Below, in pieces: positions 1,481 through 37,012 of a DNA stretch of 64,000 nucleotides. The stretch lies in the NCBI GenBank assembly GCA_022706785.1, contig JAKJBW010000002.1, positions 33,367 to 97,366 of the forward strand, in the 5' to 3' direction. Made by a program: the position numbers and the translations under genes. This DNA comes from Bacillota bacterium (GTDB lineage Bacteria; Bacillota; Clostridia; UBA1381; UMGS1253). The notes under the pieces are model-generated. The model saw only the letters and a list, made by a program, of their open reading frames with translations. It did not search any database and had not been told where the DNA came from. Position 1 is the stretch's first letter, and each line of letters begins with the position of its first letter.

Positions 1481-1669
1481 ATGATGATAGTCGACAAATC
1501 AAATGAAGATGCGGGCATGATGCTGCCTGCGCCACGCGTGGGATACGCATATGTGCCGATGCAGATAATGGGCGAGACATATACACCCGAAAAGGCTCTG
1601 ATGCAGGGGACGATTTTTCCGGAGCTAGACTTGCCTATGGGTACTTATGGTAAACAGTATACGGATTGA
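1481..1669 (+). CDS. cotJA: spore coat-associated protein CotJA
   Basis: Small protein with the GYAYVPMQ...AL.QGTIFPELDLP signature typical of CotJA. It is the first gene of a cotJA-B-C arrangement. Confidence 0.75.
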   Translation: MMIVDKSNEDAGMMLPAPRVGYAYVPMQIMGETYTPEKALMQGTIFPELDLPMGTYGKQYTD

Positions 1670-1682
1670 GGGAGGAAGAAAG

Positions 1683-1958
1683 ATGGAAGTAAGCAGTGTA
1701 AATCCTGTTGTAAGCGAAAGAGAAAAAAAATTAAAGCAGGTTATGAGCTATTCTTTTGCCGCGCTTGATTTGGGCTTATATTTGAATACGCATCCCCATG
1801 ACAAAAAGGCCCTTGATATGTTTTCGGAGATTGTGAAAAAGACTCAAGAGGCAAGGGAAGCATTTGTTAAAGAATTCGGACCGCTCACGACATATGATTG
1901 CACCGGATCGGACAGATGGTGCTGGATTGACGATCCATGGCCGTGGGACGCACAATAG
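1683..1958 (+). CDS. cotJB: spore coat protein CotJB
   Basis: Contains LDLGLYLNTHPHD and a C-terminal WCWIDDPWPWD motif typical of CotJB. GAGGGAGGA RBS lies before the ATG at 1683. Confidence 0.8.
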   Translation: MEVSSVNPVVSEREKKLKQVMSYSFAALDLGLYLNTHPHDKKALDMFSEIVKKTQEAREAFVKEFGPLTTYDCTGSDRWCWIDDPWPWDAQ

Positions 1959-1975: not shown

Positions 1976-2162
1976 ATGTGGCAATACCAAAAATCGTTGC
2001 AGTTTCCAATCAACATAAAAAATCCAGACCCTAAGCTCGCAAGCTTTATTGTCAGCCAGTATGGTGGGCCGAACGGAGAAATGGGCGCGTCTATGCGCTA
2101 CTTATCGCAGCGCTTTTCTATGCCCGATGAAGTAGTGCGCGCTACGTTAAACGATATAGGTA
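1976..2162 (+). CDS. cotJC: CotJC (Mn-catalase family spore coat protein), 5' segment of a split gene
   Basis: MWQYQKSLQFPINIKNPDPKLASFIVSQYGGPNGEMGASMRYLSQRFSMPDEVVRATLNDIG is colinear with the CotJC N-terminus. After the GG at 2159-2160 the frame runs into 5 unrelated codons and a stop at 2179. The RBS is GAAGGAGGA. Confidence 0.9.
2151..2162 (+). repeat. attL core (ACGATATAGGTA)
   Basis: Exact 12-bp match to 14284..14295. Here it forms part of the perfect palindrome ACGATATA-GG-TATATCGT (2151..2168). Confidence 0.85.
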
Positions 2163-2331
2163 TATCGTGTCCGCAATGAGCCTCACACCCCGCAAGCCCT
2201 TTATTTTCAAGGGTTCCCAAAACCGCATTTTCGGGGGATACCTCGTGTTCCGGGTGAGCCGCACCTCCTGAAACGCCCATATCCCCTGGGTTTTCAGGTG
2301 TTTTCAGCTTTTTTTTGATTTCCTTCAGGTG

Positions 2332-3888
2332 CTAGGTGATAAACACCCATTTTGTGGGCAGCAGATTGAGGGCAACCTCAATGGTATCATCCGGGTAAAC
2401 GGTCATTTTGTTCAGCAGCAGCCCGTAGAAATCCTCCGAGGCTTTGTCCGCGCCGGTTAAAATGTTTTTGATTTTTTCCTTCACATCCTTTTTAATATCC
2501 TCACGGGAATAGACCAGCTTTTGCTTTTGTTTTGCGGCATCCATTTTGCCGGTTACCTCCTGAAGCTGAGCGTCGTATCTTTCGCACATCTGCCGCATCT
2601 CCTCCTTTGTAATCTGTTTTGAAAAGAACGCGTCCAGAACAGCAGCTTTCTTTTCTTTTAAATCCTCTGCCTCCTTTTCCAGCCGTGCCAGGCTCACTTG
2701 CTCCTGCCCCTCACTGCTGGCAATGACCTCGCTCACAATATTCGAAATATTGCCTATCATGACATCCCGGTCAAGCGGAAGACTGTCCACACTTTGTTTT
2801 AAAATGTTCATAGCGATCTCATCCCGAAGCTGCCTGCCCACATTGCAGCCGATTTCATTTCCCGCCTGATCCAGCTTCTTTGTGCCCTCGTAAGCCGCTG
2901 TCCCGCACCGCCAGCATTTGTATATACTGCCATCCCTTCGGGTTTTTTTTCGGGAAACAAAGGTGGCGCTGCACTCGCTGCACTTGATTTTTCCCGATAA
3001 AGGATAGCGGTTGCCGTGCCCTTCCTTCACCTTGCTGTCCACATCCCGCCGCTTCAGTTCACGCTGCGCTTCGTCCCACAGTTCGCGGCTGATGATGGGC
3101 TCATGATGATCCTTAATAAAAACAAACGGTTCCTCACCCTTATTATATTTCTTTTCATGATCCAGATAGTTTGGGGTGTAGGTTTTTTTTTGACACAGGT
3201 CGCCGCAGTATTTTTCATTGCGCAGTATTTTTAATATGACGGTGTTTGTCCATTTGTAATTGCCCGTAAGGGTTTTATACCCAGCCTCGCGCAGCTCCCG
3301 GGCAATCACGGACGTTCCCTTGCGCTGCATCACATACTTTTGATAAATCAGCCTGACAATTTGCGCACCTTCCGGATTGACTGTCATTTTACCGCCATTC
3401 ACGTCATAGCCCAGCATGGAACGCCCGAATACCACACCTTTTTCCATCTGCCTCGTTTGCCCCCATTTCACACGCTGGCTGGTTGCCCGGCTTTCATCCT
3501 GCGCAATGGTGGATTTGATTGACAGAAACAGCTCCGATTCTTCCTTAAGTGTGTTCAGGTTGTCATTTAAGAAAAAGACCCCAACGCCAAGCTTTTTCAG
3601 TTCCCGTGTGTAAGTGATGCTATCGGCCGTATTACGGGCAAAGCGGGAAATTTCCTTTGTGATAATCAAATCGAACCGCCCCAGGTGTGCGTCCGCAATC
3701 ATGCGGTTGAACCCGGCACGTTTTTTGGTGGATGTACCCGACTTTCCCTCGTCGGCGTAGATGTCATAAAGTTCCCAGTCTGGCTGGCGTTCTATGTACG
3801 CCTTAAAATACCACCCCTGACTCTCAAATGAATTTGCCTGATCCTCCTTGTCGGTTGAAACACGGCAATATACCGCTACCTTTAACAT
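2332..3888 (-). CDS. large serine recombinase (resolvase N-domain, recombinase domain, zinc ribbon, coiled coil)
   Basis: The N-terminus MLKVAVYCRVSTDKEDQANSFESQ carries the catalytic-Ser motif. Also present are YADEGKSG, ITKEISRFARN and the Cys cluster CSEC...CWRCG. Size is ~518 aa. AAAGGAGGA RBS precedes the ATG at 3888. Confidence 0.9.
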   Translation of the reverse strand: MLKVAVYCRVSTDKEDQANSFESQGWYFKAYIERQPDWELYDIYADEGKSGTSTKKRAGFNRMIADAHLGRFDLIITKEISRFARNTADSITYTRELKKLGVGVFFLNDNLNTLKEESELFLSIKSTIAQDESRATSQRVKWGQTRQMEKGVVFGRSMLGYDVNGGKMTVNPEGAQIVRLIYQKYVMQRKGTSVIARELREAGYKTLTGNYKWTNTVILKILRNEKYCGDLCQKKTYTPNYLDHEKKYNKGEEPFVFIKDHHEPIISRELWDEAQRELKRRDVDSKVKEGHGNRYPLSGKIKCSECSATFVSRKKTRRDGSIYKCWRCGTAAYEGTKKLDQAGNEIGCNVGRQLRDEIAMNILKQSVDSLPLDRDVMIGNISNIVSEVIASSEGQEQVSLARLEKEAEDLKEKKAAVLDAFFSKQITKEEMRQMCERYDAQLQEVTGKMDAAKQKQKLVYSREDIKKDVKEKIKNILTGADKASEDFYGLLLNKMTVYPDDTIEVALNLLPTKWVFIT

Positions 3889-4022
3889 ATGGATTTCCTC
3901 CTTTCCTCTGGAATTGAACACTGCTTAAAACGAATTACGAATGTGCGGATTGTACTTCTACAAAGGTTGTGTTATTATTAAACGGTATCATAACACTAAA
4001 AGTTTTATATGGAGGCGGAAAT

Positions 4023-4463
4023 ATGAAACGAATTACGCTACATTGCCGGCATACATATAAGCAGGATTTGGAAATATTAAAGCTTCTACATGATGAATGG
4101 AAATACCGCCTTTCTAATTTTTGGTCGCTTATGATAAAAACCATAATAATAAGTTTTATTTTAATTTTCATGCCGTTAATGTATGAGTATTGGGGTGTTA
4201 ATTTTGTTGTAATTGAGGTTCCGCTATACATACTTCCATTAACAGGATTGATTTTTTCAATAGTTATTTGTTTTTTTACATCTATAGAAATCATAAAGAT
4301 AAACAGCATTAAAACAAGTATTAGAAGATCAATAATGGAAATTTCTCCAGGATTCAAGGTGGCTTTTACCAAAAGAAATATATTGCATCAAAATATTCCA
4401 ATAGTGATCTGTATCTTTCAAGTAGTTTTGTCAACAATTATGATAATATTAATAGCGAAATAA
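4023..4463 (+). CDS. hypothetical integral membrane protein
   Basis: GGAGGCGG RBS lies before the ATG at 4023. There are several hydrophobic spans, the region is AT-rich, and I recognise no family. Confidence 0.5.
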   Translation: MKRITLHCRHTYKQDLEILKLLHDEWKYRLSNFWSLMIKTIIISFILIFMPLMYEYWGVNFVVIEVPLYILPLTGLIFSIVICFFTSIEIIKINSIKTSIRRSIMEISPGFKVAFTKRNILHQNIPIVICIFQVVLSTIMIILIAK

Positions 4464-4509
4464 TATATTTATGATTAAAAATATTTCATAACGAAAAAGT
4501 GATTTTATA

Positions 4510-4692
4510 CTATTTAATCTGCCGTGCCAGTTTTTCAATACATTGCTGACATTGAGTACCACTGATCATTTCTTGCTCCGAAAGTATAAGCAGAATGTTT
4601 TTCTGATATTCAAAGAAAAACTCCGTCTGAGAATTTTTATCAATACTGACCGCATTTTCTACTCTGATAAGCCTTGCAGTTTTTTCATCCAT
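4510..4692 (-). CDS. small hypothetical protein (60 aa)
   Basis: GGGAGG sits 8 nt upstream of the ATG at 4692 (MDEKTARLIRVENAV...). I recognise no family. Confidence 0.45.
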   Translation of the reverse strand: MDEKTARLIRVENAVSIDKNSQTEFFFEYQKNILLILSEQEMISGTQCQQCIEKLARQIK

Positions 4693-5069
4693 TCTGCTCA
4701 CCTCCCATTTTCATGTGTATTCCCGCACAGCCCCACTTTTGCATGTCCGAGGAATATCGGGAATAGCCTTTTCATGTTTGCCGTGTTCCCGGATGCAATT
4801 CCTGGCGTTTGCCTTGCTTGACATAACGCCGTATTGCCGCTCTTGGCACGCTTCTGTGAGTTTGTATCCCGTCGGCACATGAAGCACAATGTCTATCCAT
4901 CATCTTCCTTTATTCATTATCACCGTTGAGAACATCTATTTCGGCAGCTTTTCAGGATTTTGAAAAATTAAAAAATCGTGCGATCGCACGATTTTTATGT
5001 TGATTTATGGTTGGTTGTACAGTATAATATTTCTAACTATTTCCAACGAAATTTTCAGAGGTGCTCAAT

Positions 5070-5288
5070 ATGACTGCGAGTTATAAAAAATTGTTTAAAA
5101 TGCTGATTGATCTGGATATGAAAAAGAAAAACCTTTGTGAAAAGGCCGGAATCAGTATCGCTTCCATTACCAAAATAGGTCGCGGCGGCACGGTTACAAC
5201 CGATATTTTAATTAAAATCTGTACGGCTCTGGACTGCACTGTGGATGATATTATGGACATCGTGCCTGATAAGGAAACGTCATGTTAA
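5070..5288 (+). CDS. XRE/Cro-CI family helix-turn-helix protein
   Basis: KKKNLCEKAGISIASITKIGRGGTVTTDILIKICTALDCTVDDI is a typical short HTH_XRE protein. Confidence 0.75.
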   Translation: MTASYKKLFKMLIDLDMKKKNLCEKAGISIASITKIGRGGTVTTDILIKICTALDCTVDDIMDIVPDKETSC

Positions 5289-5342
5289 ATTGCGTATTTT
5301 ATCTGGTAAATAATCAAAGAATGAAAAGGAAAGGTGAAGAAT

Positions 5343-6077
5343 ATGCCTAACCATTATTCCGATATAGGTTTTGAAATAAAAAGTTCTGACGATTTGAATA
5401 GAATTATTGGTCAGTTAATGCCAATAGGCAAAGTGATAAGAAAAGGATTCTGCAAGTACTGGCTTATCACGGTTGACACACATATTGAGTTTTGGCAGCA
5501 CATGAAATCAAAAAATACATTTGATTCATTTGAAATGCACTATAATAGTCAAAACCTAATACCCGTTCGATTTGATCATTGGGTCAATCGTTCAGCAGAT
5601 AAGTCAAATGGTTCTGCTTATGTTTGGTATCATTTCGATGGAGATTTATTCCCGTTTGTGGTAGATATTCCGGATGCAGGTTTTTATAAAAAAGTAAAAG
5701 AGAATCAAATTTTAAACTTACAAGTATCTTGCTTTGCTGAGAAGCTAGAACTTTTCAAAACAGATACTGATTATGAAGCTTCACAAACGAATGAATCAAA
5801 ATTTGCGACAGAGTTTTTTATTCCTACCGGAACCTTTTCTCCAGATGACAATGAAAAAGAGCCAACAGCTTATTCATGGTTTGCTGGTCATATCCTGTCC
5901 TTCGAAAAAAGGACAAACAGTGTGTGCAAAAAAGAATACTATCACTTTGGTGTAACCTGCCAGGAGGCTCTATTTGATATTGTTGCTGATAGCGAGTTAG
6001 TTACAGAAGTGCCTGTCATCGGCGGGATACTAAAAACTTCATGCTGGATGAGCGGCAAAGTGAAGGAAGTTAAGTGA
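5343..6077 (+). CDS. hypothetical protein
   Basis: Long ORF with an RBS-like AGGAAAGG. I recognise no family. Its stop overlaps the next start (TGATG). Confidence 0.55.
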   Translation: MPNHYSDIGFEIKSSDDLNRIIGQLMPIGKVIRKGFCKYWLITVDTHIEFWQHMKSKNTFDSFEMHYNSQNLIPVRFDHWVNRSADKSNGSAYVWYHFDGDLFPFVVDIPDAGFYKKVKENQILNLQVSCFAEKLELFKTDTDYEASQTNESKFATEFFIPTGTFSPDDNEKEPTAYSWFAGHILSFEKRTNSVCKKEYYHFGVTCQEALFDIVADSELVTEVPVIGGILKTSCWMSGKVKEVK

Positions 6078-6382
6078 TGGATTTGCTAATTATGAATCGC
6101 GATGATATCGCCGCCCGTTGGGAAAACGGGTGTTTGACCGTCATAAGAGAAAGCAAATTGCCGCTTTATTTTGCCAAAACGCAAAATGTGGAGCACTGGC
6201 TTGAAACCCGTGCCATTGATTATCACCGGGCAAACTCACGACTCTTAAAAAAAACGCTCCGACTACCGATAACCATTGTTACTGAAGAGATTATAATAGG
6301 CGTTTTAAAAAAGCTGAATATGAAGATCAAATCCAAGGTAATTGTGGACTTTATACTGAACGGATATAAACAAATAGGTTAA
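6077..6382 (+). CDS. hypothetical protein (translationally coupled to the preceding ORF)
   Basis: The ATG at 6077 shares its A with the upstream TGA. I can confidently assign no family. Confidence 0.45.
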   Translation: MDLLIMNRDDIAARWENGCLTVIRESKLPLYFAKTQNVEHWLETRAIDYHRANSRLLKKTLRLPITIVTEEIIIGVLKKLNMKIKSKVIVDFILNGYKQIG

Positions 6383-6402
6383 TTTTTTATAGAAGGTGTG
6401 AA

Positions 6403-6678
6403 ATGATAACACTTACAGTAAAAATAACGTTATATGCTCCGCAGTGTCATTCCTTAAAAGAAAAGCGGATGATACTCCAGCGTATTATTTCGCGGGTAAA
6501 AAACAAATTCAATGTATCCATTGCCGAGGTTGCTTTGCAGGATGTTCACCAAACCGTTGTGCTGGGCATTGCCGTTGTTTCGAGCAGTCACACTCACGCT
6601 CAAAATGTGTTGGATGAAGTGCTGAGGTTTATTGAAAATAATACGGATGCGGACGTTACAAATGTAGAGTTTGAATAG
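6403..6678 (+). CDS. DUF503 (YlxP-like) protein
   Basis: ~91 aa with the SLKEKR...KFNVSIAEV..QD.HQ..VLGIAVVS pattern characteristic of DUF503. Confidence 0.6.
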   Translation: MITLTVKITLYAPQCHSLKEKRMILQRIISRVKNKFNVSIAEVALQDVHQTVVLGIAVVSSSHTHAQNVLDEVLRFIENNTDADVTNVEFE

Positions 6679-6720
6679 TATATAAGCTATCAAACTTAAA
6701 ATGCAAAGGAGTGGCAGTGA

Positions 6721-7179
6721 ATGAAATATGGTGGCGTACTGCTTGCGGCGACTGATATGGAGCGTTCCAAGCGCTTTTATCATGACGTGTTGGGGCTTGA
6801 GGTAATCGAAGATTTCGGTGCAAACGTAGTACTGACCGGGAATATTGCTTTGCAGACCAAAAAAACATGGGAAAGCTTCATTTGCGGAAAGCCCGTTGCT
6901 TTTGCCACCCATGCCTTTGAATTATATTTTGAAGAAGATGATATAGATGGCTTTATGAAAAAGCTGGATAGCATACCGGATATCAAATTTGTTCATTCTC
7001 TGATTGAACACGCCTGGGGCCAGCGTGTTGTGCGGTTTTATGATCCCGATCGTCATATTATAGAGGTTGGTGAAAATATGGATATGGTCGTAAAAAGGTT
7101 TCTCAAAAGCGGGCTTTCCGTTGAAGAAACCGCCAAACGGATGGATGTATCGGTGGAATACGTACAGGCTAAAGCATAG
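6721..7179 (+). CDS. VOC/glyoxalase-bleomycin resistance family protein
   Basis: MERSKRFYHDVLGLEV...FELYFEEDDID...WGQRVVRFYDPDRHIIEVGE is typical of the VOC fold. RBS is AAAGGAG. Confidence 0.75.
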   Translation: MKYGGVLLAATDMERSKRFYHDVLGLEVIEDFGANVVLTGNIALQTKKTWESFICGKPVAFATHAFELYFEEDDIDGFMKKLDSIPDIKFVHSLIEHAWGQRVVRFYDPDRHIIEVGENMDMVVKRFLKSGLSVEETAKRMDVSVEYVQAKA

Positions 7180-7193
7180 AAGGAGGGAACCTT

Positions 7194-7892
7194 ATGACAC
7201 TGTATGAAACAATTTTCAAAAGACGCTCTGTCAGAAAATACGATATGACGCCGCTGGACGAAAAAACACTGGATGATATCCGCGAGTTTATCACAAATAC
7301 CAGGCAGCTACCTGAACAAAACGTGCGCTTTGAAATAGTATCGGGGGACAAAGTAAAGGGCGCTGCCGCGCCGCATTATATTATGAGCTTTTGCTCCCCC
7401 GGCGACGCGGAATATGCGAATGTGGGCTATATACTGGAAAAAGCCGATTTATATATTCAAAGCCTGGGCCTGGGCAGCTTATGGCTTGGTATGGGCAATC
7501 CAAAAGAGAAGGAAGACGATTTTTGTATCATGCTTGCATTCGGAAAAAGCGACGTGCCCTTCAGAGCAGGTGAGCAGGAGTTTAACCGCCTGCCTGTCAA
7601 CGAAATCAGCAATTCAGACAGCGAACTGGCACAGGCGGCGCGTCTGGCTCCGTCGGCGTGCAACTCCCAGCCCTGGAAGCTGTTTTTTGCGGATGGCCGT
7701 GTAACTGTGCGCTATTTTGGACGCGGGCTTATGAAAATGATATTAAAATCCAAAATGAATAAAATTGATATCGGCATTATGACACGCCATGTTGTTACCG
7801 CTCTTGAAAACGAGGGCAAGCAAATCAAATCCATCACACCCAAAACATCCGGTAAGGATTTTGAAATTGAAATTAGTTATGAAAAGGGATAA
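7194..7892 (+). CDS. nitroreductase family protein
   Basis: The N-terminal RRSVRKY motif and APSACNSQPW are typical of the nitroreductase superfamily. Confidence 0.7.
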   Translation: MTLYETIFKRRSVRKYDMTPLDEKTLDDIREFITNTRQLPEQNVRFEIVSGDKVKGAAAPHYIMSFCSPGDAEYANVGYILEKADLYIQSLGLGSLWLGMGNPKEKEDDFCIMLAFGKSDVPFRAGEQEFNRLPVNEISNSDSELAQAARLAPSACNSQPWKLFFADGRVTVRYFGRGLMKMILKSKMNKIDIGIMTRHVVTALENEGKQIKSITPKTSGKDFEIEISYEKG

Positions 7893-7909
7893 ACAAGGGA
7901 GCAGATGAC

Positions 7910-8473
7910 ATGAATGAAACGTTAAACGTAATTGCTAAGCGGTATTCCTGCCGTGATTTTAAAAGCGAGATGCCATCCGATGAGCAGCTTTGGGCAATTG
8001 CCGAAGCCGCCATACAGGCGCCCAGCGGGATGAATCGTCAGGCATGGCGGGTGATCGTTGTAAAAGACAAAATGCTGATGCAGGACATGGAATCCGAAGG
8101 GATGTCTTATCTTGCAAGTATGGAGGACAAGTCCTCTTACAACAGGATCATGGCGCGCGGCGGCAGGCTGTTCTACGGCGCGCCCTGTATAATTGTCGTT
8201 CCGATTGACCCGACGCAATACGGCCCCGCGCTGATTGACTGAGGTATTTTATGCCAGAATATCACACTGGCCGCAACCTCGCTGGGAATCGCCAACATTA
8301 TGTGCGGATTTGCCGGCCTGGCCTTCGCCAGCGGCCTTCGGGCAGAAGAATTCAGCAAACGGTTGGGCTTCCCTGACGGTTATGCCTTTGGCTGTTCGGT
8401 ATTATTGGGATACGCAAACACCATAAAACCGCCCCATGAGCCGGACAGGGATAAAATTTCGTTCATAGGCTGA
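7910..8473 (+). pseudogene. nitroreductase family gene with an in-frame TGA at 8240..8242
   Basis: RYSCRDF and QAPSGMNRQAWR lie upstream of the stop. The same frame continues after the TGA as GILCQNITLAATSLGIANIMCGF...GYANTIKPPHEPDRDKISFIG, giving a normal-length (187 codon) nitroreductase. Confidence 0.6.
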
Positions 8474-8492
8474 TGGGAACAGGAGAAGGCTT

Positions 8493-9062
8493 ATGAGATA
8501 TGCCGTACTTTTAAAAGGGATTAACGTCGGCGGAAAAAACACCGTCAGGATGGATGATTTAAAGCAATTGCTTCTTGATTTGGGCCTTTGCAAGGTGAAG
8601 ACCTATATCCAAAGCGGCAATGCTGTCTTTGAAACCGCACTTGACGAAGCCGTTTTGCGCGAGGCAATCAAGACCGGTTTTATTGACCGCTTTGGCTTTG
8701 AAAGTGATGTGCTGATACGGAGCGAAGACGAAATGCGGCTTCTGATTGAACAGCTCCCCATCACAGCGCCTGAGATAGCGGCAGCTCAGGCCGCTGATCC
8801 GCAGGCCCAGCATCTCTATGTTTATTTTTTAGATCATACGCCGGAGCAGACGCAGATCGGCGCAATATGCAGGGAGTGTGCCGGCGAAGATATCCTGCGG
8901 ACAGGAAAAAGAGAGCTGTATCTCCTTTGCCGGCAGAGCATACGGGGGTCAAAGCTCGCGGCCCGTATTGCAAAAGTGTTCGATTCGACTGCTGCGCGCA
9001 ACTGGAGAACAGTCAATCAATTGTACGATATGATGAGAGATAAGGGTGATGAACATGTTTGA
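8493..9062 (+). CDS. DUF1697 family protein
   Basis: The MRYAVLLKGINVGGKN..V.M.DLK N-terminus is characteristic of DUF1697. Confidence 0.65.
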   Translation: MRYAVLLKGINVGGKNTVRMDDLKQLLLDLGLCKVKTYIQSGNAVFETALDEAVLREAIKTGFIDRFGFESDVLIRSEDEMRLLIEQLPITAPEIAAAQAADPQAQHLYVYFLDHTPEQTQIGAICRECAGEDILRTGKRELYLLCRQSIRGSKLAARIAKVFDSTAARNWRTVNQLYDMMRDKGDEHV

Positions 9063-9732
9063 GGGATTTTCTCCCCGCACCATTGACTTTATGTGGAACC
9101 TCCGCTTCAACAACCGGAAAGCCTGGTTTGAAGAGCACAAAGACGAATACCGGCGCGATTTTCTCTATCCCATGAAGGCGTTAGGGCTTGAGGTGTTTGA
9201 ACGGGTCACCGGTCAATACGGCGACCGCGGTTTTATCCACAAGCTTGCGCGCATTTACAAGGATGCCAGACGCCTGCGCGGTGACGGCCCGTACCGGGAT
9301 CATCTGTGGTTTTCCATTGAACGGCCCAGCGAGGAGTGGACATCCACCCCCGTATTCTGGTTTGAGCTGGAGCCAGAAAGCTGGAGCTACGGACTGGGCT
9401 ATTACCAGGCAAAGCCGCTCACCATGGCAAAGCTGCGGGCGCGCATTGACAAAGCGCCGAAGCAATTTGAAAAACTCGTCGCGCCTTTGGCAAAGCAAGA
9501 GGAATTTATTCTGGAAGGCCCGGAGTACGTAAGGAAAAAGGTAGCGCCTACCCCTAAGACAGCCGTGTGGTACAACAAGAAATCCTTTTCATTGATCCAT
9601 AATCAGCAGAATGGTACGGAGCTCTTTTCACCGGAATTAGCTGACCGCCTTGCAGGCGGTTTTGAATTCCTGATGCCATTATACGACTATTTTGTTACAT
9701 TGGATGCCGATCCTGATCCGCAAATCGGATAA
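9055..9732 (+). CDS. DUF2461 (TIGR02453) family protein
   Basis: F..L..NN.KAWFEEHKDEYRR at the N-terminus is typical of DUF2461. The gene overlaps the preceding stop. Confidence 0.6.
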   Translation: MFEGFSPRTIDFMWNLRFNNRKAWFEEHKDEYRRDFLYPMKALGLEVFERVTGQYGDRGFIHKLARIYKDARRLRGDGPYRDHLWFSIERPSEEWTSTPVFWFELEPESWSYGLGYYQAKPLTMAKLRARIDKAPKQFEKLVAPLAKQEEFILEGPEYVRKKVAPTPKTAVWYNKKSFSLIHNQQNGTELFSPELADRLAGGFEFLMPLYDYFVTLDADPDPQIG

Positions 9733-9814
9733 AATAAATGCGGGCGCTCTTGCTAAAGGTGAGGGGAGCCGAATCACATATGGGGTTCAACTCCCCTCCC
9801 CTCAAATAACCAAG

Positions 9815-10091
9815 GCATATCGGCGTCATTGATCACAAACACATTGCAAGGAGATTAAGACATGTATTATTCGACGAACTATTCATCGCCTGTGGGACAG
9901 ATTACGCTGGCCAGCGACGGCGGCAATCTTGTCGGCTTGTGGCTGGAGGGACAAAAATACTTTGGCGGCACCTTGCCGGGGGCTATGACACAAAGCGATG
10001 ATCTGTCTGTATTCGCCGCCGCAAAGGAATGGCTGGACAAGTATTTCGCGGGCAAAAAGCCTGCAATCTCCGACCTGCCCTTAGCGCCTAT
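9815..10091 (+). repeat. diverged direct repeat copy 1 (ogt 5' region)
   Basis: 277 bp are alignable without gaps to 11981..12257, with most positions identical by eye. Confidence 0.8.
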
Positions 10092-10401
10092 CGGCGGGCA
10101 ATTTCGTCAGACCGTATGGGATATTTTATGCCGGATTCCCTACGGCGAGGTCACAACTTACGGCCAGATCGCAAGAGAGGCAGCGGCCAGAATGAACAGG
10201 CCAAGCATGTCGGGTCAGGCGGTTGGCGGAGCCGTGGGGCATAATCCCATCTCCATTATTATTCCCTGCCATCGGGTAGTGGGTGCAAACGGAAGCCTGA
10301 CGGGTTATGCCGGAGGCATCAACAAAAAAATTCAGTTGCTTGAGTTGGAAGGTGTGGATATCTCTGGGTTATTCATACCGGCGAAAGGCACGGCGCTCTG
10401 A
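9862..10401 (+). CDS. ogt: methylated-DNA--protein-cysteine methyltransferase
   Basis: Active-site motif IIIPCHRVV and the upstream YGEVTTYGQIA helix-turn-helix region are present. Confidence 0.85.
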   Translation: MYYSTNYSSPVGQITLASDGGNLVGLWLEGQKYFGGTLPGAMTQSDDLSVFAAAKEWLDKYFAGKKPAISDLPLAPIGGQFRQTVWDILCRIPYGEVTTYGQIAREAAARMNRPSMSGQAVGGAVGHNPISIIIPCHRVVGANGSLTGYAGGINKKIQLLELEGVDISGLFIPAKGTAL

Positions 10402-10534
10402 TCAATGCCCAAACGGCCAATAAACTGATAGACAATGCTACCAAACTGATAAAAGACGGGCAGCGGATCCGCGTGCATGGAACAGAAGGGTATGTAGAAA
10501 TTCTATAAGGGGAACGGAAGGAAGCATATTATAT

Positions 10535-10825
10535 ATGAACCAAAAAACGTACGAGTTTGAAGCCATCATTCAAAAAGTCCCCGGCATAGACGGCGCATAT
10601 ATTGAATTCCCTTATGATGCGAGAGCAGAGTTCGGCAAAGGCGCAGTAAAAGTCCACGCAACTTTTGAAGGAGAGCCTTATGACGGGAGCATCGTTAATA
10701 TGGGCATAAAGAACGCCGACGGCTCGGTGTGCTATATCATAGGTTTGCGCAAGGATATTCGCGCTAAAATTGGTAAACAGCCGGGCGACAGCGTAAAAGT
10801 TACTATTATGGAGAGGGCGGGGTGA
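10535..10825 (+). CDS. DUF1905 family protein
   Basis: [20 protein letters not shown]...[25 protein letters not shown] matches the DUF1905 pattern. Confidence 0.6.
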
Positions 10826-10832
10826 ACATGAT

Positions 10833-11243
10833 ATGTGGCAATGTCCAAAATGCGGGCGCGTATTCAAGAACCAGAGCCAAGACCACTTTTGCGGCGAACC
10901 GCCGAAAACCATTGACGCATATATTGCCGCCCAACCAGAGAGTGTTCAGCCATTTTTGAATCAGGTCCGGGATACAATCCGCGCCGTGTTGCCGGACGCA
11001 CAGGAGCGCATTTCTTGGAGTATGCCGACCTACTGGAGTAAGCGTAACATTATTCATTTCGCGGCGTTCAAAAAGCATATCGGGTTGTATCCCGGTGATA
11101 AGGCTATTGAGAATTTCGGCGACCGTTTGAAAGAATACAAGACAAGCAAAGGTGCGGTGCAATTGCCGTATGATAAGCCGTTCCCGCTTCCTTTGATTGC
11201 AGAGATTGCGAAATGGTGCTATGAAACAGGGAATCACCACTGA
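10833..11243 (+). CDS. DUF1801 (YdhG-like) protein with an N-terminal CxxC...C zinc-ribbon-like segment
   Basis: IDAYIAAQPESVQPFLNQVRDTIRAVLPDAQERISWSMPTY... is typical of DUF1801. Confidence 0.6.
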   Translation: MWQCPKCGRVFKNQSQDHFCGEPPKTIDAYIAAQPESVQPFLNQVRDTIRAVLPDAQERISWSMPTYWSKRNIIHFAAFKKHIGLYPGDKAIENFGDRLKEYKTSKGAVQLPYDKPFPLPLIAEIAKWCYETGNHH

Positions 11244-11249
11244 TGGAGG

Positions 11250-11783
11250 ATGCGTATGCCAAAAACAAGAAAGATGCTAAGTGACTGGGACGCACCGTAT
11301 ATTCAGTCGCTTGTGAAATTAATTGAAACGCAGAGTAAGGCAACGCTCGCAAATTGGGCAGCCCTTTATTCTGAGCGGGTTATATTGCCGCTGTGGCGCA
11401 AGCACTACCCCGATGACCTGCGTCCGCAAAATGCACTAAATGCCGCTCGGGAGTGGCTATCGGGAGAAATAAAACTGCCGCAGGCGAAACCGATAATCCT
11501 TGAGTGCCATGCGGCTGCCCGCGAAGCAGACGGGAACCCTGCTGCGCAAGCCGCAGCCAGGGCAATCGGTCAATCTGCGTCGACAATTCACTCGGCAAGG
11601 CACTGTATCGGACTTGCGCTATATGGCGCGATAGCGGTTGCGTATGACACGCTCGGGACGAATGCTCCTTGGGCGCAGTTGGAGCAATGTGCCGCCGACG
11701 AGTGCGGACGTATGCTTGACGCGCTGCGCGCCGCCTACGTGGAGAACGAACCAAACCCGGCGAAAATCGACTGGAAATGTTGA
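11250..11783 (+). CDS. hypothetical protein
   Basis: Clean ORF in the same orientation as its neighbours. I can assign no confident family. Confidence 0.5.
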   Translation: MRMPKTRKMLSDWDAPYIQSLVKLIETQSKATLANWAALYSERVILPLWRKHYPDDLRPQNALNAAREWLSGEIKLPQAKPIILECHAAAREADGNPAAQAAARAIGQSASTIHSARHCIGLALYGAIAVAYDTLGTNAPWAQLEQCAADECGRMLDALRAAYVENEPNPAKIDWKC

Positions 11784-11838
11784 TTGTGCCCCGCCGCGGG
11801 GCAGGACATTTTGTGTGAAAATTATCACGGGTGATGTT

Positions 11839-12024
11839 ATGGGTAATTACACAAAGGAAGAATTGGAAGAAGCGCTACGGGCCGTAGCTTCACTGGTCAG
11901 TAAGTGCGAAAAAGCGCAGGAAAGGTTATCGCAGGGTACTTCCCAGTGGACGCTGCTTAAAAACAGGGTCAAAGCGCTCCGCATATCGGCGTCATTGATA
12001 ACAAAAGCATTGCAAGGAGATTAA
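11839..12024 (+). CDS. small helical hypothetical protein
   Basis: The ATG at 11839 gives MGNYTKEELEEALRAVASLVSKCEKAQERL.... The longer track ORF (11638) overlaps the previous gene, so the internal start is preferred. Confidence 0.4.
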   Translation: MGNYTKEELEEALRAVASLVSKCEKAQERLSQGTSQWTLLKNRVKALRISASLITKALQGD

Positions 12025-12257
12025 GACATGTATTATTCGACGAACTGTTCATCGTCTGTGGGACAGATTACGCTGGGGAGTGACGGCGGCAAGCTTGCCG
12101 GCCTGTGGATGGAGGAACAAAAATACTTCGGCGGCACCGTACCGGGGGTGATGACACAAAGCGATGGTCTTCCGGTGTTTGCCGCCTCAAAGGAATGGCC
12201 GGACAGGCATTTTGCGGGCAAAAAGCCTGCAATCTCCGACCTGCCTTTAGCTCCCAT
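11981..12257 (+). repeat. diverged direct repeat copy 2 (ogt 5' fragment)
   Basis: Alignable to 9815..10091, including 47 bp upstream of the ATG and the first ~76 codons. Confidence 0.8.
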
Positions 12258-12273
12258 TAGTATAAACCGATAG
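12028..12273 (+). pseudogene. truncated ogt N-terminal fragment (no catalytic domain)
   Basis: MYYSTNCSSSVGQITLGSDGGKLAGLW...KKPAISDLPLAPI parallels residues 1-76 of the Ogt at 9862, then ends after SINR. The PCHR motif is absent. Confidence 0.7.
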
Positions 12274-12312
12274 GAGCGAAACGCAGAACGAAAATCCGGA
12301 GGCAAACCAAGC

Positions 12313-13482
12313 ATGACATCATTACTATTAGTGGTAATTTACATGGCATTTATCAGCCTGGGACTGCCGGACTCTATACTGGGCTCGGCATGGCCGTCCA
12401 TGTACGGAGCGTTAAACGTACCCGTATCCTATGCGGGCATCATAAGCATGATTATTGCCGGAGGGACGATCATTTCCAGCCTTTTCAGCGATAAGTTTAT
12501 CCGAAAATACAGCACCGGCCTTGTAACGACTCTAAGCGTGGCAATGACAGCTGTGGCGCTTTTGGGATTTTCATTTTCAGGGCCTTTCTGGCAGTTATGC
12601 CTATGGGGAATTCCCTATGGATTAGGCGCGGGAAGCGTGGATGCGGCGTTAAATAATTTTGTGGCGCTGCATTATCAATCACGCCATATGAGCTGGCTGC
12701 ATTGTTTTTGGGGAATCGGCGCAACAGCCGGGGCATATATGATGGGCTTATGCCTGACCAATGGGCTGCAGTGGAATTTGGGGTATCAGGCAATAGGCGT
12801 CATTCAAATCATTTTAGTGCTTTGTCTGCTATTTTCTTTGCCCTTATGGAAAACAAAGCAGGGAAAAGTAGAAACAAAAGCGGAAGAACTAAAAAGCCTC
12901 AGTCTGAGAGAAACATGGAGGCTTTCAGGCGCAAAAGCAGTTTTGACAGCCTTTTTCTGTTACTGTGCGCTGGAATCGACTACAGGCCTTTGGGCAAGCA
13001 GTTACATGGTCTTAAATAAAGGTATCCATAAAGAAACAGCGGCGCAATGGGCGTCTTTGTTTTATTTCGGAATAACGGCGGGCAGATTTTTGAGCGGTTT
13101 TATTACCGGAAAGCTCGGCAATAAAACGATAATCCGCATAGGACAGATAACAGCGGGAATCGGTATCGTGTTTATGCTGCTTCCGCTTGGAAATATATCA
13201 ATGCTTATAGGTTTGGGCCTTATAGGATTAGGATGCGCGCCCATTTATCCAAGTCTGCTGCATGAGACGCCCGGCAATTTTGGCGCAGAAAACTCACAGT
13301 CAATTATGGGGCTGCAAATGGCGTGCGCATATATAGGAGCTACATTTATGTCTCCGTTTTTCGGATTTTTGGCTGACAAAATCAGTATCAGCCTATATCC
13401 GTTTTACCTGATGGTATTTATTGCGCTGATGGTGGTAATGACGGAAATGATGAACAATATTCGTGGTAAAAGAATTCAGTGA
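12313..13482 (+). CDS. MFS transporter
   Basis: 389 aa with about 12 hydrophobic spans and MFS-like loops. Confidence 0.7.
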   Translation: MTSLLLVVIYMAFISLGLPDSILGSAWPSMYGALNVPVSYAGIISMIIAGGTIISSLFSDKFIRKYSTGLVTTLSVAMTAVALLGFSFSGPFWQLCLWGIPYGLGAGSVDAALNNFVALHYQSRHMSWLHCFWGIGATAGAYMMGLCLTNGLQWNLGYQAIGVIQIILVLCLLFSLPLWKTKQGKVETKAEELKSLSLRETWRLSGAKAVLTAFFCYCALESTTGLWASSYMVLNKGIHKETAAQWASLFYFGITAGRFLSGFITGKLGNKTIIRIGQITAGIGIVFMLLPLGNISMLIGLGLIGLGCAPIYPSLLHETPGNFGAENSQSIMGLQMACAYIGATFMSPFFGFLADKISISLYPFYLMVFIALMVVMTEMMNNIRGKRIQ

Positions 13483-13575
13483 TGCTGTTCGATAGCCCTT
13501 TTGCGGGCATCTTTACTTACCTCCGGCATATTTATGATGAATTTTAATTAAAAAAAACAATGAGAAGGTGTTTAC

Positions 13576-13923
13576 ATGTTATTTATCTGCTATCCCAAAT
13601 GCACGACCTGTCAAAAGGCGCAAAACTGGCTTAATGACAACAATTTGGAATATAAGATGCGAAACATAAAAGAAGAAAATCCGTCCTATGACGAATTAAA
13701 AGCATGGTTTGAGATGAGCGGACACCCGCTTACAAAACTCTTTAATGCCAGCGGGCTCTTATATAAATCCATGGGCTTAAAGGACAAGCTTCCTTCCATG
13801 AGCGAGGATGAGCAGTTGAAGCTGCTTGCCACTGACGGCATGCTGGTAAAAAGACCGATTGTGGTGAAGGATGATACTGTTTTGGTTGGGTTTAAAGAAT
13901 CGGATTGGGAAGCTTTGAAATGA
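13576..13923 (+). CDS. ArsC/Spx-family (YffB-like) thioredoxin-fold protein
   Basis: An N-terminal C..C motif (CYPKCTTCQKAQNWL) and a C-terminal LVKRPIVV are typical of the ArsC family. Confidence 0.65.
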   Translation: MLFICYPKCTTCQKAQNWLNDNNLEYKMRNIKEENPSYDELKAWFEMSGHPLTKLFNASGLLYKSMGLKDKLPSMSEDEQLKLLATDGMLVKRPIVVKDDTVLVGFKESDWEALK

Positions 13924-14283
13924 ATAGACGCTATTATTGCTAAAACTTGTTCTTACTTCGTGAGCTTAAAAGAAACTCGTTGGCTATCACTAAGTTGAGG
14001 ATGGACTGAAAAAGAAATCAGCTTATTGATTTCAATGGAGATAATCTTATCGTTCACTCGTTATCACATCCCTTCGGGAGCGATAACAGGACGTTTACTT
14101 CATACTGAGGATCGTCCGTTGGGACGAACTGGCTTTGATTTACGAAGCCGAAACGTTGAAATCTTCCATAAATACTGATATGTTTCAATAAAGGCAAAAA
14201 CCGCACATCCGGCTTTTCGGGCTTGTCCATGCCTGAAAAACCAGTATTTTCAGGGGTTTCCAAGTCTGCGGTACACCCCGGAT

Positions 14284-14295
14284 ACGATATAGGTA
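14284..14295 (+). repeat. attR core (ACGATATAGGTA)
   Basis: Exact 12-bp match to 2151..2162, and the cotJC reading frame resumes through it (GAT ATA GGT ACA GAA GAA). Confidence 0.85.
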
Positions 14296-14705
14296 CAGAA
14301 GAATTGGCTCATCTTGAAATGGTAGGCACGCTGGTACGCCAGCTTGCCAAAAACGCGACAACAAGCCAGATAGAAAAAAGCCCGATGGGGGCTTACTTTA
14401 TTGACCACGATAGGGGCGTATACCCACAAGCCGCAGGCGGGACACCCTTCAGCGCCTCAACATTTGCCGTGACAGGCGACCCCATTGCAGACCTTGTTGA
14501 AGATCTTGCGGCCGAACAAAAAGCCAGAGCCGTTTACGACAATATCCTGCGCGTATCCAATGACGCTGATGTAAATACTGTTATTAAGTTCTTGCGTGAG
14601 CGCGAAGTCGTACATTTCCAGCGTTTCGGCGAAGCATTAAACTACATCCAAAACCGCCGCCCGTCTAAGAAATACATGATAGGCGACATGGACAGCAAGA
14701 AATAA
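14284..14705 (+). CDS. cotJC: CotJC, 3' segment of the split gene
   Basis: From 14295 the frame reads TEELAHLEMVGTLV...GDPIADLVEDLAAEQKARAVY...FLREREVVHFQRF, which are Mn-catalase/CotJC metal-binding helices. The upstream part of track ORF 14223.. is element sequence. Confidence 0.9.
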
Positions 14706-19892: not shown

Positions 19893-20023
19893 CAGTGCAG
19901 GAAGGTGGAGGTAGTCTTTTCCACCTACGGGCGGGTCGCAAGAGAAAGAGGTGTGACCGCGGCCTGCTTGGAACCGAACTCTTTCAAAAACAAAAAAATA
20001 TTTATAAGGGAGGATTTGAGAGT

Positions 20024-23000
20024 ATGAAAAATCTCAAAAAGGCTTTAGCATTAGTGCTTTCATGTGCAATGGTCTTTGGTATGGTTGTTACCGCAGCCGT
20101 TACCAATTATCCTGATGTATCAAAAGACGCTACATATGCTGAAGCGGTAAATGTTCTGTCAGCGCTCGGCGCTATTCAGGGCGATGAAAACGGCAATTTC
20201 AATCCTGACTCCGCGGTTACCAGAGCTGAAATGGCGAAGCTTCTTTACACCATGGTCAGCACAGGCAGCGTGAGCAACACAGCGACACAGTTTGCTGATG
20301 TTGCTTCGGAGCACTGGGCTTCCGGTTATATTCAGTATTCCAAGCAGCTCGGTTTTATCGACGGCTATGATGCTGTTACCTATGGCCCGGAAGATTCCGT
20401 AACGTATGAGCAGGTATTAAAGCTCGTGCTTTGCGCTATGGGCTACAAGAATGCGGCAGAGTATGCCGGCGGATTCCCGACAGGTTATCTCCTCGTTGCT
20501 GCTGACATCGGCCTGACCAAAGGCATTAAGGTCAACAGTCCTTCCGAACCTGCTCCCAGAAGCGTTGTTGCCAGCGTTATATACAACGGCATGAACCTTC
20601 CGATCATGAAGCAGACCAAGTTCGGCAGCGAGCCTGAATTCAAGGCTATGGACGGCTCGGATGATGCTAACGGCGTATTCCTCACCCTGCTCAACAAGAC
20701 ATACGGCACATACAAGGTTGAAGGCAAGGTAGTTGCAACTTCCAAGACCGCTCTTACAGGCAGATCACAGGAAGACAAAGTTGGTTACATCGCTTTTGAT
20801 GTTACAAATGCATTGAAAGTTGATCTTGCAGATTTAGACAGCAGCCGCGATACGGTTTCAGTCAGCGATCCTTATACTATGCCTTCAATCAATGCTGCAG
20901 GCACGGGTGCGGATGCACTTCTCGGCTATGAGAGCGTTGCTTATCTGAAGTCAGATGACGGCGAGTTCGCGCTTGTTGCTATTGTTTCTAAGGCTAACAG
21001 AAACATTGAAACAAAAATCATCAATTCTACATTGGTATACAACCCCAGCAAGGATTCCGCAGTAAAAGACGCTGATGCGTTTAATCTTGTTGGAGACGAT
21101 GATCTTGTTTACTCCTATTGGAACGACAGAGATGAGGACACTAAGATCACTGTTAAAGATGTATACAGTGGAGATGCTGCTGGCAAAAAGGTCTATGTTA
21201 TCTGGAACGGCGTAGTGAAGGGTACCCTGTCAACGCTTTTGGATTCCGAGAAGTCACCGTATATCTTGGAGAACAATGCATATAAGTTCAACACTGCCAA
21301 CGTTGTTTGTCCCAAAATGGGCAGCGTTAAGCTGGTTGACACCGACAACGACGGCAATATCGACATCATCAGCTCTACGGCTTATGAGACCGCTTTGGTT
21401 ACCGGTGTGAATGCATCCAAGCAGCAGATCAAGCTCAGCACTACTTACACAACAAACAGAAGTGCTCTGGGCAATTCTCTTACACTTGACACCGATGAGA
21501 ACACTGAGTTGAAAGAGTGGACGGTTGTAATGGATGATGGCACTGCAATTGACCTTGAAGACATTGAAATAAATGATGTTATCAGTGTTTCCACAGACAA
21601 TTTTACTGATCCTACCTTCTATGACATCATTGTAACCAGGAAGACTGCTACCGGTACGGTAAACGAAGCAGGCACTGATGAGTACACCATTGAAGGCAGC
21701 ACATATGAAATAGCCGATGGCATTACTTCTATCACCCTGAAAGTCGGTTCGGAAGGTATTTTCTATCTTGATATGAACGGCAGAATTATTGGTATGGATG
21801 CCACTAATCCCGTTGGCGATTATGCTTATCTTGTGAAGATGGGCGGCAACAACTATGAAGAGCTTCAGATGAAGATGTTTACTGCTGACGGAACCAAGAC
21901 CTTTGAAGTAGCTGAAAAGATCAAGATAAACGGCAAATATCTGGATGATTACGCAGCAAAGGTTTATACAAAGAAGGATATAAATGATATATTCGAAAAC
22001 AGCACCGAATACACCGCATTTGCTACGGGGCTTACTGATGAGGTAACGATTGCTGACATTATGGAAAGCGGCGAATATGGCGGCTATGTCGGAACGGATA
22101 AGGTTACCCCTGCTGTCCTGTTGCATGCGCTTACAAACAACAGCTATGATGGCAAAGTTGCTCCGGCACTCAACGACAATCTTACCAAAGCATTAGCCGG
22201 CAGCGCTAAGGCAAACGCATTCGTGTCCTATAAGGTTACTGACAATACCTTAAAGGAGATCAACCTTGCTCTTAAGACGGATGATGACAAGTACTTCAAC
22301 TGTGTATACGCAGCTACCGGAGCAGACCAGGAGTGGAAAGAAGATTACAGCAGCTTTGGCTCCACTAATATTGCTGTAATGGATAATGCGAAAGTCTTTA
22401 TGGTTAAAGGCGATGATGCATCGGATTATCAGGTAAAAGACATCACTGCCCTGAAAGACGGTAAAGCGTATCAGCCTATATTGTTTGAAAGTGTAGACGA
22501 TAGCGTAGCTGCTGTACTGATTCTTAACGATGGTAGCGGTATAGATTCCGAATCTGCGCTGGCTGTATTTGACAGCAAAATAGACGCTCTGTATAATGAC
22601 GACGAAGTGATCGCTATTACTGCTTACCAGAACGGTGAAAAGATGGAGAAGAAGTTAATTGCTACATCTACCACCAGCGTGAATGGCTGTGGTTACCAGA
22701 ACGCAAGTGTCGATGATTTACAGTTCGGTGATACATTCATATACGACGAAGACTCTGACGGCTATGTGACGGAAATTAAGGTTGTGTTCTCTCCTGGCAG
22801 TACGGCGCCGGCATTTGCCGATACTACAGATTTCACGGCGGGCAATGAATATATGTCTTTGCCGGACGACAACTGGGCATTTATCAGCAACGGATCAGAC
22901 AATGACCAGGATTCGCAGATATTCTTTGGATATCTTGCAAGTGTTAACGAGAGAAGCAACGGATCGTTTACTGTAAAGGCGTTTACGGGTGACGGCAAGA

Positions 23001-36920: not shown

Positions 36921-37012
36921 ATTACCTAGGAATGCGGCACAGCTATGGTAATTGGGAAGCATTAAGGGACAGGCCGCCTGATTGTGAAAACTTTACATAG
37001 GAGGAAATGAAT

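Follow-up and report, generated by a model that had tools for sequence, protein, structure and literature searches.

How can an endospore-forming bacterium keep a spore-coat gene whose coding sequence is interrupted by 12.1 kb of inserted DNA? The question is raised by cotJC in a 64,000-nucleotide stretch of a Bacillota bacterium genome (contig JAKJBW010000002.1, positions 33,367 to 97,366), called the window in the following. Here, the gene is split by an element that carries a large serine recombinase (LSR), and the original prediction took this element for a sporulation intervening element that is excised to rebuild cotJC. Our account is that of a non-phage cargo island which was integrated into cotJC by its LSR and would be excised during development, and we give the whole of it a probability of roughly 0.6. 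Its structural part, taken by itself, is close to certain.

The cotJC gene is split within a stretch of invariant residues

The cotJ operon is expressed in the mother cell under the control of sigma-E in Bacillus subtilis. In the window, cotJA (1481..1669, plus strand; Pfam CotJA, E = 2e-15) is followed by cotJB (1647..1958, plus strand; Pfam CotJB, E = 3e-28), whose true start is likely the ATG at 1683 that is preceded by GGGAGGAAG. The third gene begins at 1976. Its 5' segment (1976..2162, plus strand) comprises codons 1-62 and the first base of codon 63 and was matched by positions 1-63 of the Mn_catalase profile. As had been predicted, both the open reading frame (ORF) and the profile match showed that the CotJC-like sequence ends after codon 62 (...RATLNDIG) and is followed by ISCPQ, five codons unrelated to CotJC, and then by a stop at 2177-2179. 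The 3' segment with codons 63-198 (TEELAHLEM...) and the stop codon was located at 14295..14705 by the profile and by alignment to orthologues. It has the expected orientation, the profile positions 60-198 being matched by 14283-14705 on the same strand as the 5' half.

When 1976-2162 was joined to 14296-14705, an ORF of 597 nt was obtained that reads through the junction in frame (...ATLNDIG|TEELA...), as the original prediction had stated. It encodes 198 amino acid residues and not 199, the latter being the number of codons including the stop. The rebuilt protein is 75-80% identical to intact orthologues of 193-198 residues from end to end. The alignment is gapless at the junction, which confirms that the two halves rebuild one contiguous CotJC. 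The protein is of the Mn-catalase type and is colinear with solved Mn-catalases too. The residues D60, I61, G62, E64, E65 and H68 are invariant in the CotJC alignment, and the junction falls inside the sequence D60-I61-G62 / E64-E65-x-x-H68. Neither half contains a stop or a frameshift, and all invariant residues are kept. Within the 64 kb of the genome that the window makes visible, no second cotJC copy was found. The closest intact CotJC is only 80% identical to the rebuilt protein.

About 100 nt upstream of cotJA, a CATATTAT box was observed at 1370-1377. It could be the -10 element of the cotJ operon, of the sigma-E/K type, with a spacing to an upstream ATA that is shorter than the consensus.

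The junctions form a pair of attachment sites

The inserted element is 12,133 bp long (2163..14295) and is bounded by two copies of the 12-mer ACGATATAGGTA, the core of attL at 2151..2162 and the core of attR at 14284..14295. The identity of the two copies, claimed beforehand, extends not one base further on either side, and the 12-mer occurs exactly twice in the window when both strands are considered. By chance, a match of 12 nt at two pre-defined break points is expected with a probability of about 4^-12. We infer that the crossover takes place at the dinucleotide GG (2159-2160 and 14292-14293), because the GG of the Gly62 codon comprises the sole bases common to all attL/attR pairs in 11 complete related elements.

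From the two junctions, the parental sites were rebuilt. The attP site reads CGGATACGATATA-GG-TATATCGTGTCCG and is symmetric at 14 of 20 positions overall and at 12 of the 13 inner positions, by our own count from the alignment. Its junction contains CCGGATACGATATAGGTATATCGTGTCC. In attB, which codes for N-D-I-G-T-E-E and has TTAAACGATATAGGTACAGAAGAATTGG at its junction, only 5 of 20 positions are symmetric. Arms of attP that are palindromic around the GG were found in the 11 complete related elements. This is the standard site anatomy of LSRs, with short attachment sites, imperfect dyad symmetry, a 2-bp crossover and hybrid attL and attR sites.

In two related loci, L047 (5586-5653) and L100 (2662-2747), the 3' end of the LSR gene adjoins the junction of the cotJC C-half in the same orientation, and not the junction of the N-half. 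The recombination module appears to be flipped relative to the attachment arms in these loci, which would be possible because attP is nearly palindromic.

The recombinase at the left junction is complete

The LSR gene (2332..3888, minus strand) encodes 518 residues from the ATG in an intact ORF that ends at a distance of 170 bp from attL. The size and the position are those given in the original prediction, and three Pfam domains agree with the assignment. The Resolvase domain (E = 2e-31) covers residues 15-163 of the 529-residue form of the ORF, with the N-terminus MLKVAVYCRVSTDKEDQ and the serine motif YCRVST. It is followed by the Recombinase domain (E = 1e-22) and by Zn_ribbon_recom, which scored 25.8 bits at a cut-off of 25.3. 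A catalytic domain with the serine motif, together with the Recombinase and zinc-ribbon domains, is what identifies a serine integrase, and PHROG 95, an integrase family, was matched with E = 5e-123. Among solved structures, 3g13, a recombinase of the C. difficile conjugative-transposon type, was the best match to the catalytic domain by sequence (E = 3e-39). The similarity to SprA of SPbeta, whose PDB entries are named YokA, is weak (E = 5e-10).

Related elements use the same codon of cotJC

Scanning one genome per species with the LSR of the window returned 80 loci at 53-68% identity, which are referred to by their L numbers. They include Oscillospiraceae, Lachnospiraceae, Peptococcaceae and many metagenome-assembled genomes (MAGs) of Clostridia, as well as isolates of Yeguia hominis, Ructibacterium gallinarum, Pseudoflavonifractor phocaeensis, Dysosmobacter and Roseburia. 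A cotJC N-fragment that ends at residue 62 adjoins the LSR gene in 74 of the 80 loci, usually at a distance of 22-400 bp and on the opposite strand, and is joined by cotJB and usually cotJA. Four of the other six loci contain the C-half. Wherever the start of the C-half was found, it was residue 63 (16/16), and the N-half could be aligned over residues 1-62 without a gap in 63 loci. Uninterrupted cotJC genes with the same site DNA, which the original prediction had asked to be looked for in related genomes, are present in other taxa, for example in L084 and L088-L090.

The complete related elements (n = 11) are 3.8-12.4 kb long. They share hardly any cargo, as only 2 of 20 queried window ORFs matched, each in 1-3 loci. 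The smallest, L004 (3.8 kb) and L051 (4.5 kb), hold the recombination genes, one or two cargo genes and little else. From these comparisons, a large clade of clostridial LSR elements is indicated that uses one position in cotJC and has in common a two-gene module of an ORF of about 60 codons and the LSR gene, with variable cargo.

In several Lachnospiraceae and related genomes, the N-piece of cotJC was seen to be split again at ...SQYGG|PDGE (codons ~30-32). The coordinates of this second split are 11590-15272 in L054, 2650-5973 in L068 and 3405-8181 in L074, and it was also seen in L036, L057, L070, L079, L097 and L099. The element inserted there is 3.1-4.6 kb long and has its own, unrelated LSR (~28% identity), which leaves cotJC in three pieces. 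In L054, the junctions of the second split share AGTACGGTGGTC. Two further genes recur in related elements and are not found in that of the window. A putative PemK/MazF-like toxin gene, judged by its sequence motifs, lies at a median distance of ~450 bp upstream of the LSR gene in 17 elements (for example L035:9008-9646), and small regulators resembling sigma-70 region 4 recur at ~1.4 kb upstream.

The split gene half is conserved in a lineage that inherited the element

A pair of loci allowed an estimate of the selection on the interrupted gene. L010, from a sheep rumen Oscillospiraceae MAG, and L014, from a water-buffalo MAG, align in one collinear block of 4,128 nt with 85.3% identity, which spans the small ORF, the LSR gene, attL, cotJC-N, cotJB and cotJA. 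The synonymous divergence (dS) was 0.487 for the LSR gene, 0.519 for the small ORF, 0.523 for cotJC-N and 0.526 for cotJB. Since dS is equal across the four genes, the element was already present in the common ancestor of L010 and L014. In cotJC-N, 17 synonymous and 5 nonsynonymous changes were counted (binomial p = 2.6e-7). The resulting omega, the ratio of nonsynonymous to synonymous divergence, was 0.07, lower than that of the LSR gene (0.13) and of cotJB (0.33). These values indicate that the split half of cotJC is under purifying selection in a vertically inherited lineage, and a dead fragment would not be expected to behave in this way. A pooled pN/pS of 0.21 over five independent locus pairs was not relied on, because most of the divergence between the more distant pairs may have preceded the insertion.

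A small gene upstream of the LSR gene is a candidate directionality factor

The only other gene common across the LSR family is a small ORF. A homologue, typically of 53-82 residues, lies directly upstream of the LSR gene on the same strand in 68 of the 80 loci. In the window, it encodes 60 residues (4510..4692, minus strand), is intact and is preceded by a strong ribosome-binding site (RBS), GGGAGGTG, at 4699-4706. The gap to the LSR gene is 622 bp in the window and mostly 30-330 bp in relatives, with a 3-bp overlap in two of them. With an omega of 0.30 between L010 and L014, the small ORF evolves as a protein. Its AlphaFold2 (AF2) model, computed from the single sequence, has three helices with a mean confidence (pLDDT) of 83.

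Searches with this protein gave no name. The window ORF had no Pfam match at E <= 0.01, and 26 family members gave chance-level matches only. Neither PHROG nor the PDB returned a sequence match, a Foldseek search of the AF2 model against the PDB returned nothing below E = 0.4, and a word-indexed protein search matched only the query itself. An exhaustive search with phmmer returned representatives of 13 clusters, which are small proteins (61-123 residues) and unnamed throughout. We propose that the small ORF may encode the recombination directionality factor (RDF) of the element, because the known RDFs of sporulation elements, GirX and CD1234, are equally small orphans, each encoded in the element that also carries its LSR gene.

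Upstream of the small-ORF RBS, at a fixed position of ~10-20 nt, the motif CATAnnnT was found in 20 of 34 clusters of upstream sequences. Shuffled sequences had it in 0.97 clusters on average and in at most 5 in 1000 shuffles, and a one-base variant occurs at the same place in most of the remaining clusters. As read from the sequences, the box is preceded at a distance of 16-17 nt by GG(C/T)AAA or GTTATA, with boxes of the sequence GGACAGG or GGTACAAG close by. Boxes of the CATA type are the -10 elements of sigma-E (CATACAnT), of sigma-K (CATAnnnTA) and in part of sigma-G (CATnnTA). The nearby boxes that contain ACA recall, in their sequence, the sites of SpoIIID, which has the consensus KRTAACARK in C. 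difficile (PMC5025042). In the window, the promoter-like region (4699..4748, minus strand) has the layout seen in relatives, with GGACATGCAAA (4738-4748), a spacing of 16 nt and AATACACAT (4713-4721), corresponding to GGACAGGCAAA-N16-CATACACA in L055.

Further upstream, the stretch 4770-4900 on the minus strand (…AGCGTGCCAAGA…TATGTCAAGCAAG…ACGGCAAA…) is conserved with L002 and in part with L024, in differing reading frames. It had no Rfam match and may have a regulatory instead of a coding function; in the whole window, nothing scored above the Rfam gathering thresholds.

The element carries cargo genes and no phage genes

The element has a GC content of 45.6%, compared with 48.1% for the window, and is mosaic in composition (29-56% GC). 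The lowest value belongs to an insert (3930..4500) that parts the small ORF from the LSR gene and is absent from relatives. This insert contains an orphan ORF of 164 residues with membrane-like character (3969-4463, plus strand), for which no homologue was found in any related locus. On the strand of the LSR gene, the same stretch (3930-4500) has several matches to promoters of the sigma-70 type. Divergent from the small ORF, a Cro/C1-type helix-turn-helix (HTH) regulator (5061..5288, plus strand; Pfam HTH_26, E = 1e-15) is preceded by the sigma-70-like sequence TTGATT-17-TATAAT at 5000-5028.

The cargo occupies ~8.6 kb (5334..13923) with all genes on the plus strand. By family matches, it encodes a DUF3881-like protein, DUF503, a glyoxalase/bleomycin-resistance protein, two nitroreductases (the second disrupted), DUF1697, DUF2461, an O6-methylguanine methyltransferase (Ogt/MGMT) with its duplicated fragment, DUF1905, DUF1801, an Imm5-like protein, an MFS transporter and an ArsC/Spx-family protein. 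Judged by these predicted functions, the cargo is of the stress and detoxification type. The second nitroreductase is broken into ORFs at 7910-8242 and 8300-8473, which are parted by a stop or a frameshift. A direct duplication of 277 nt (9815-10091 and 11981-12257, 88% identity) leaves an N-terminal Ogt/MGMT fragment of 81 residues at 12028-12273 and points to a rearrangement within the cargo.

No phage structural, packaging, lysis or replication genes were detected when 24 ORFs of the element were searched with Pfam and 10 with PHROGs. The phage-type matches consisted of the integrase, the HTH regulator and two PHROGs of unknown function only. A prophage was rejected on the absence of these families. 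Likewise, Pfam families of relaxases, coupling proteins and type IV secretion systems (T4SS) were absent from the element. A phage origin was also rejected, as the best matches in phage databases were unannotated 'Bacteriophage sp.' contigs of 4-7 kb from human faeces, and named phages were at most 42% identical. In IMG/VR contigs that carry LSRs of the clade, the cotJC N-fragment again adjoins the LSR gene. Two of these, L097 and L099, have a second, distant LSR after the cotJC N-fragment, and we suspect that this second LSR element explains why they were called viral.

Outside the element, the window encodes a spore-coat morphogenetic protein with SipL (SPOCS) and LysM domains (55801-57369, minus strand). 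Two very large surface proteins with SLH domains were also seen (19895-23257 and 37007-39889, both plus strand). Together with cotJABC, these predicted genes identify the host as a spore-forming member of the Clostridia that has an S-layer.

How the element would leave cotJC, and what else could explain the split

Integration by the LSR alone is a known property of this enzyme family. The LSR of the window element would join attP to the attB site in cotJC (codons N59-D-I-G-T-E-E65) and exchange the strands at the Gly62 GG. The island would then be inherited via the forespore chromosome, which would keep the element. The small ORF would be transcribed from a promoter of the sporulation-sigma type, the CATA box, and its product as the RDF would enable the LSR to recombine attL with attR, releasing a 12.1-kb circle and restoring the CotJC of 198 residues. 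This excision would be timed to sporulation and confined to the mother cell, the compartment of cotJ expression. The role of the RDF, the sigma factor involved and the timing in the mother cell are inferred, especially for the window copy with its degenerate box. Excision during sporulation is plausible on the patterns described above. For the family, we see slightly better than an even chance for it, and for the window copy somewhat less. A more far-reaching proposal, which we advance tentatively and at less than even odds, is that a single codon of cotJC has become the specialised target of a whole clade of LSR cargo islands in gut and environmental Clostridia, and that the RDF and a sporulation promoter restrict their departure from the chromosome to the mother cell. 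As a developmental safe harbour, cotJC would allow accessory genes to be carried and exchanged without a cost to the spore, and the three-piece cotJC of some Lachnospiraceae would need two excisions.

Several observations weigh against the developmental part of this account, and most of them would fit an ordinary integrative island that knocks out cotJC. For such an island, the conserved DIGTEE stretch would be a convenient attB, the gene would be dispensable or backed up by a paralogue, and excision would be rare or linked to transfer instead of sporulation. The loss of cotJC is reported to be mild, B. subtilis mutants having no apparent spore defects according to the statement cited in PMC12122855, and Clostridia often carry cotJC paralogues (PMC11222575), C. 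difficile among them. The elements also move horizontally. L072 and L077 have LSRs that are 99.6% identical in host cotJC-N halves of 80% identity, suggesting recent spread, and identical P' arms occur across genera (for example L027-L030, L036, L040 and L046). An ordinary mobile lifestyle would thus coexist with any developmental role. The cargo is variable and accessory, and the second, unrelated LSR family that also targets cotJC fits a safe-harbour site. In the window, the promoter box is degenerate, reading AATACACA instead of CATAnnnT with A and not C as its first base, and the 29%-GC insert of ~600 bp splits the module and uncouples the small ORF from the LSR gene. The closest relatives, L001-L004, are also without a clean box. 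A CATA-type box does not separate sigma-E and sigma-K from the forespore factor sigma-G, and the RDF role is argued from conserved position and small size. The selection test covers 62 codons in one lineage. When metagenome contigs were scanned with a degenerate pattern for attB, attP, attL and attR, no conspecific empty site or circle junction was found; the scan gave only intact cotJC genes of other taxa and chance matches, with no blastn similarity to the window. An ordinary island does not, however, account for an omega of 0.07 on the split N-half after it had diverged together with the element to a dS of ~0.5, nor for N-halves that are gapless over residues 1-62 in 63 loci. It also leaves unexplained that a CATA-type box, not of the sigma-A type, is fixed upstream of the small ORF across diverged sequences, and that elements of 3.8-4.5 kb persist without transfer genes. 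We consider this alternative unlikely, although it deserves to be taken seriously.

The state of the window copy could also be that of an immobilised relic, unable to excise, with the cotJC pieces as fragments of a pseudogene too young to have decayed. The broken nitroreductase (7910-8473) and the 277-nt duplication with the Ogt/MGMT fragment are signs of decay and rearrangement in the cargo, and the AT-rich insert within the recombination module is foreign and accompanied by the degenerate promoter box. But the LSR ORF has all its domains and the serine motif and is complete, and the small ORF, preceded by its strong RBS, is likewise intact. The attachment cores are identical, the inner attP arms are symmetric at 12 of 13 positions, and neither cotJC half has acquired a stop or a frameshift or lost an invariant residue. 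A relic is improbable on these grounds. An error of assembly or binning, joining unrelated contigs within cotJC, would be a trivial cause of the split, and nothing in the data was found to favour it. The same architecture at the same codon was found in 74 independent genomes, isolates and complete chromosomes among them, the junctions are a proper pair of attL and attR from which a palindromic attP is recovered, and two NCBI contigs with lengths of up to 118 kb encode an identical LSR protein; the chance of an artefact is practically negligible. Taken together, the cargo island that was inserted by its LSR and would leave cotJC in the course of sporulation is the account that we prefer.

Comparison with known intervening elements

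Intervening elements in sporulation genes are an established kind, known as skin, SPbeta, vfbin, vrin, gin and yin. The window element lies inside a sporulation gene of an endospore-former, has an LSR gene beside the junction and rebuilds the reading frame on removal. In this respect, the original interpretation stands, as the LSR-bounded insert in a spore-coat gene can be removed precisely and in frame. The novelty of an interrupted cotJC does not stand, since such interruptions have been reported. Table S3 of bioRxiv 10.1101/2022.02.25.481979 has an entry for a skin-like element interrupting cotJC in Laceyella sacchari, and a line in bioRxiv 10.1101/2021.11.22.469490 names cotJC as an integration target of phages or transposons, citing Abe et al. 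2013. These are one-line survey observations of the same gene interrupted by a recombinase-bearing element, with a named example from the Bacilli. In the literature searched, we found no experimental or excision study of a cotJC element and no description of the clostridial LSR clade, its fixed cotJC codon or the small partner ORF. The family-level picture is a modest addition, since the kind is conceptually expected by specialists and cotJC was partly noted before. The prophage phi027 of C. difficile was rejected as a case of the same phenomenon, as it adjoins a cotJC-like gene and is not inside it.

If excision is tied to sporulation, cotJC would join sigK, spsM, spoVFB, spoVR, gerE and yabG as a gene rebuilt by programmed rearrangement, and the phenomenon would be common in gut Oscillospiraceae and Lachnospiraceae, beyond a few model Bacilli and C. 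difficile. If it is not, cotJC would be a well-defined integration hotspot for mobile islands. In carrier genomes, cotJC is likely to be annotated as a pseudogene or as two fragments. The related LSRs, whose attB/attP pairs are known, and the family of candidate RDFs also form a natural series that offers raw material for the engineering of serine integrases.

SPbeta, which interrupts spsM in B. subtilis, is a 134-kb active phage (PMC4191935). Its recombination genes, SprA and SprB, resemble the proposed window module in being an LSR with a small RDF, whereas the window element has no phage genes and its LSR is only weakly similar to SprA. Closer in kind is gin, which interrupts gerE in B. cereus ATCC 10987. 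It is a non-phage element of 28.6 kb with three recombinases, among them the LSR GirC, and a 42-residue RDF, GirX (PMC5595907). Both gin and the window element lie in a mother-cell sporulation gene, are flanked by a short direct repeat and allow a precise rebuild; gin is excised by GirC together with GirX, and the window element would be excised in a similar manner. They differ in host gene and class (gerE in Bacilli, cotJC in Clostridia), in the number of recombinases (three and one) and in length (28.6 kb and 12.1 kb). GirX is very small and has no known motif, and the small ORF of the window is likewise without detectable similarity to anything named. The regulatory logic that we propose for the window family would be that of skinCd in C. 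difficile, where the LSR CD1231 is constitutive and the 72-residue RDF CD1234 depends on sigma-E and SpoIIID (PMC5025042). That element differs in its target, sigK, and in its prophage-like character, and the regulation suggested for the window is read from a motif, its LSR being closest to 3g13. Both are LSR elements of Clostridia in a mother-cell gene, with a small orphan protein, established as the RDF in skinCd and proposed as such in the window, encoded near the LSR.

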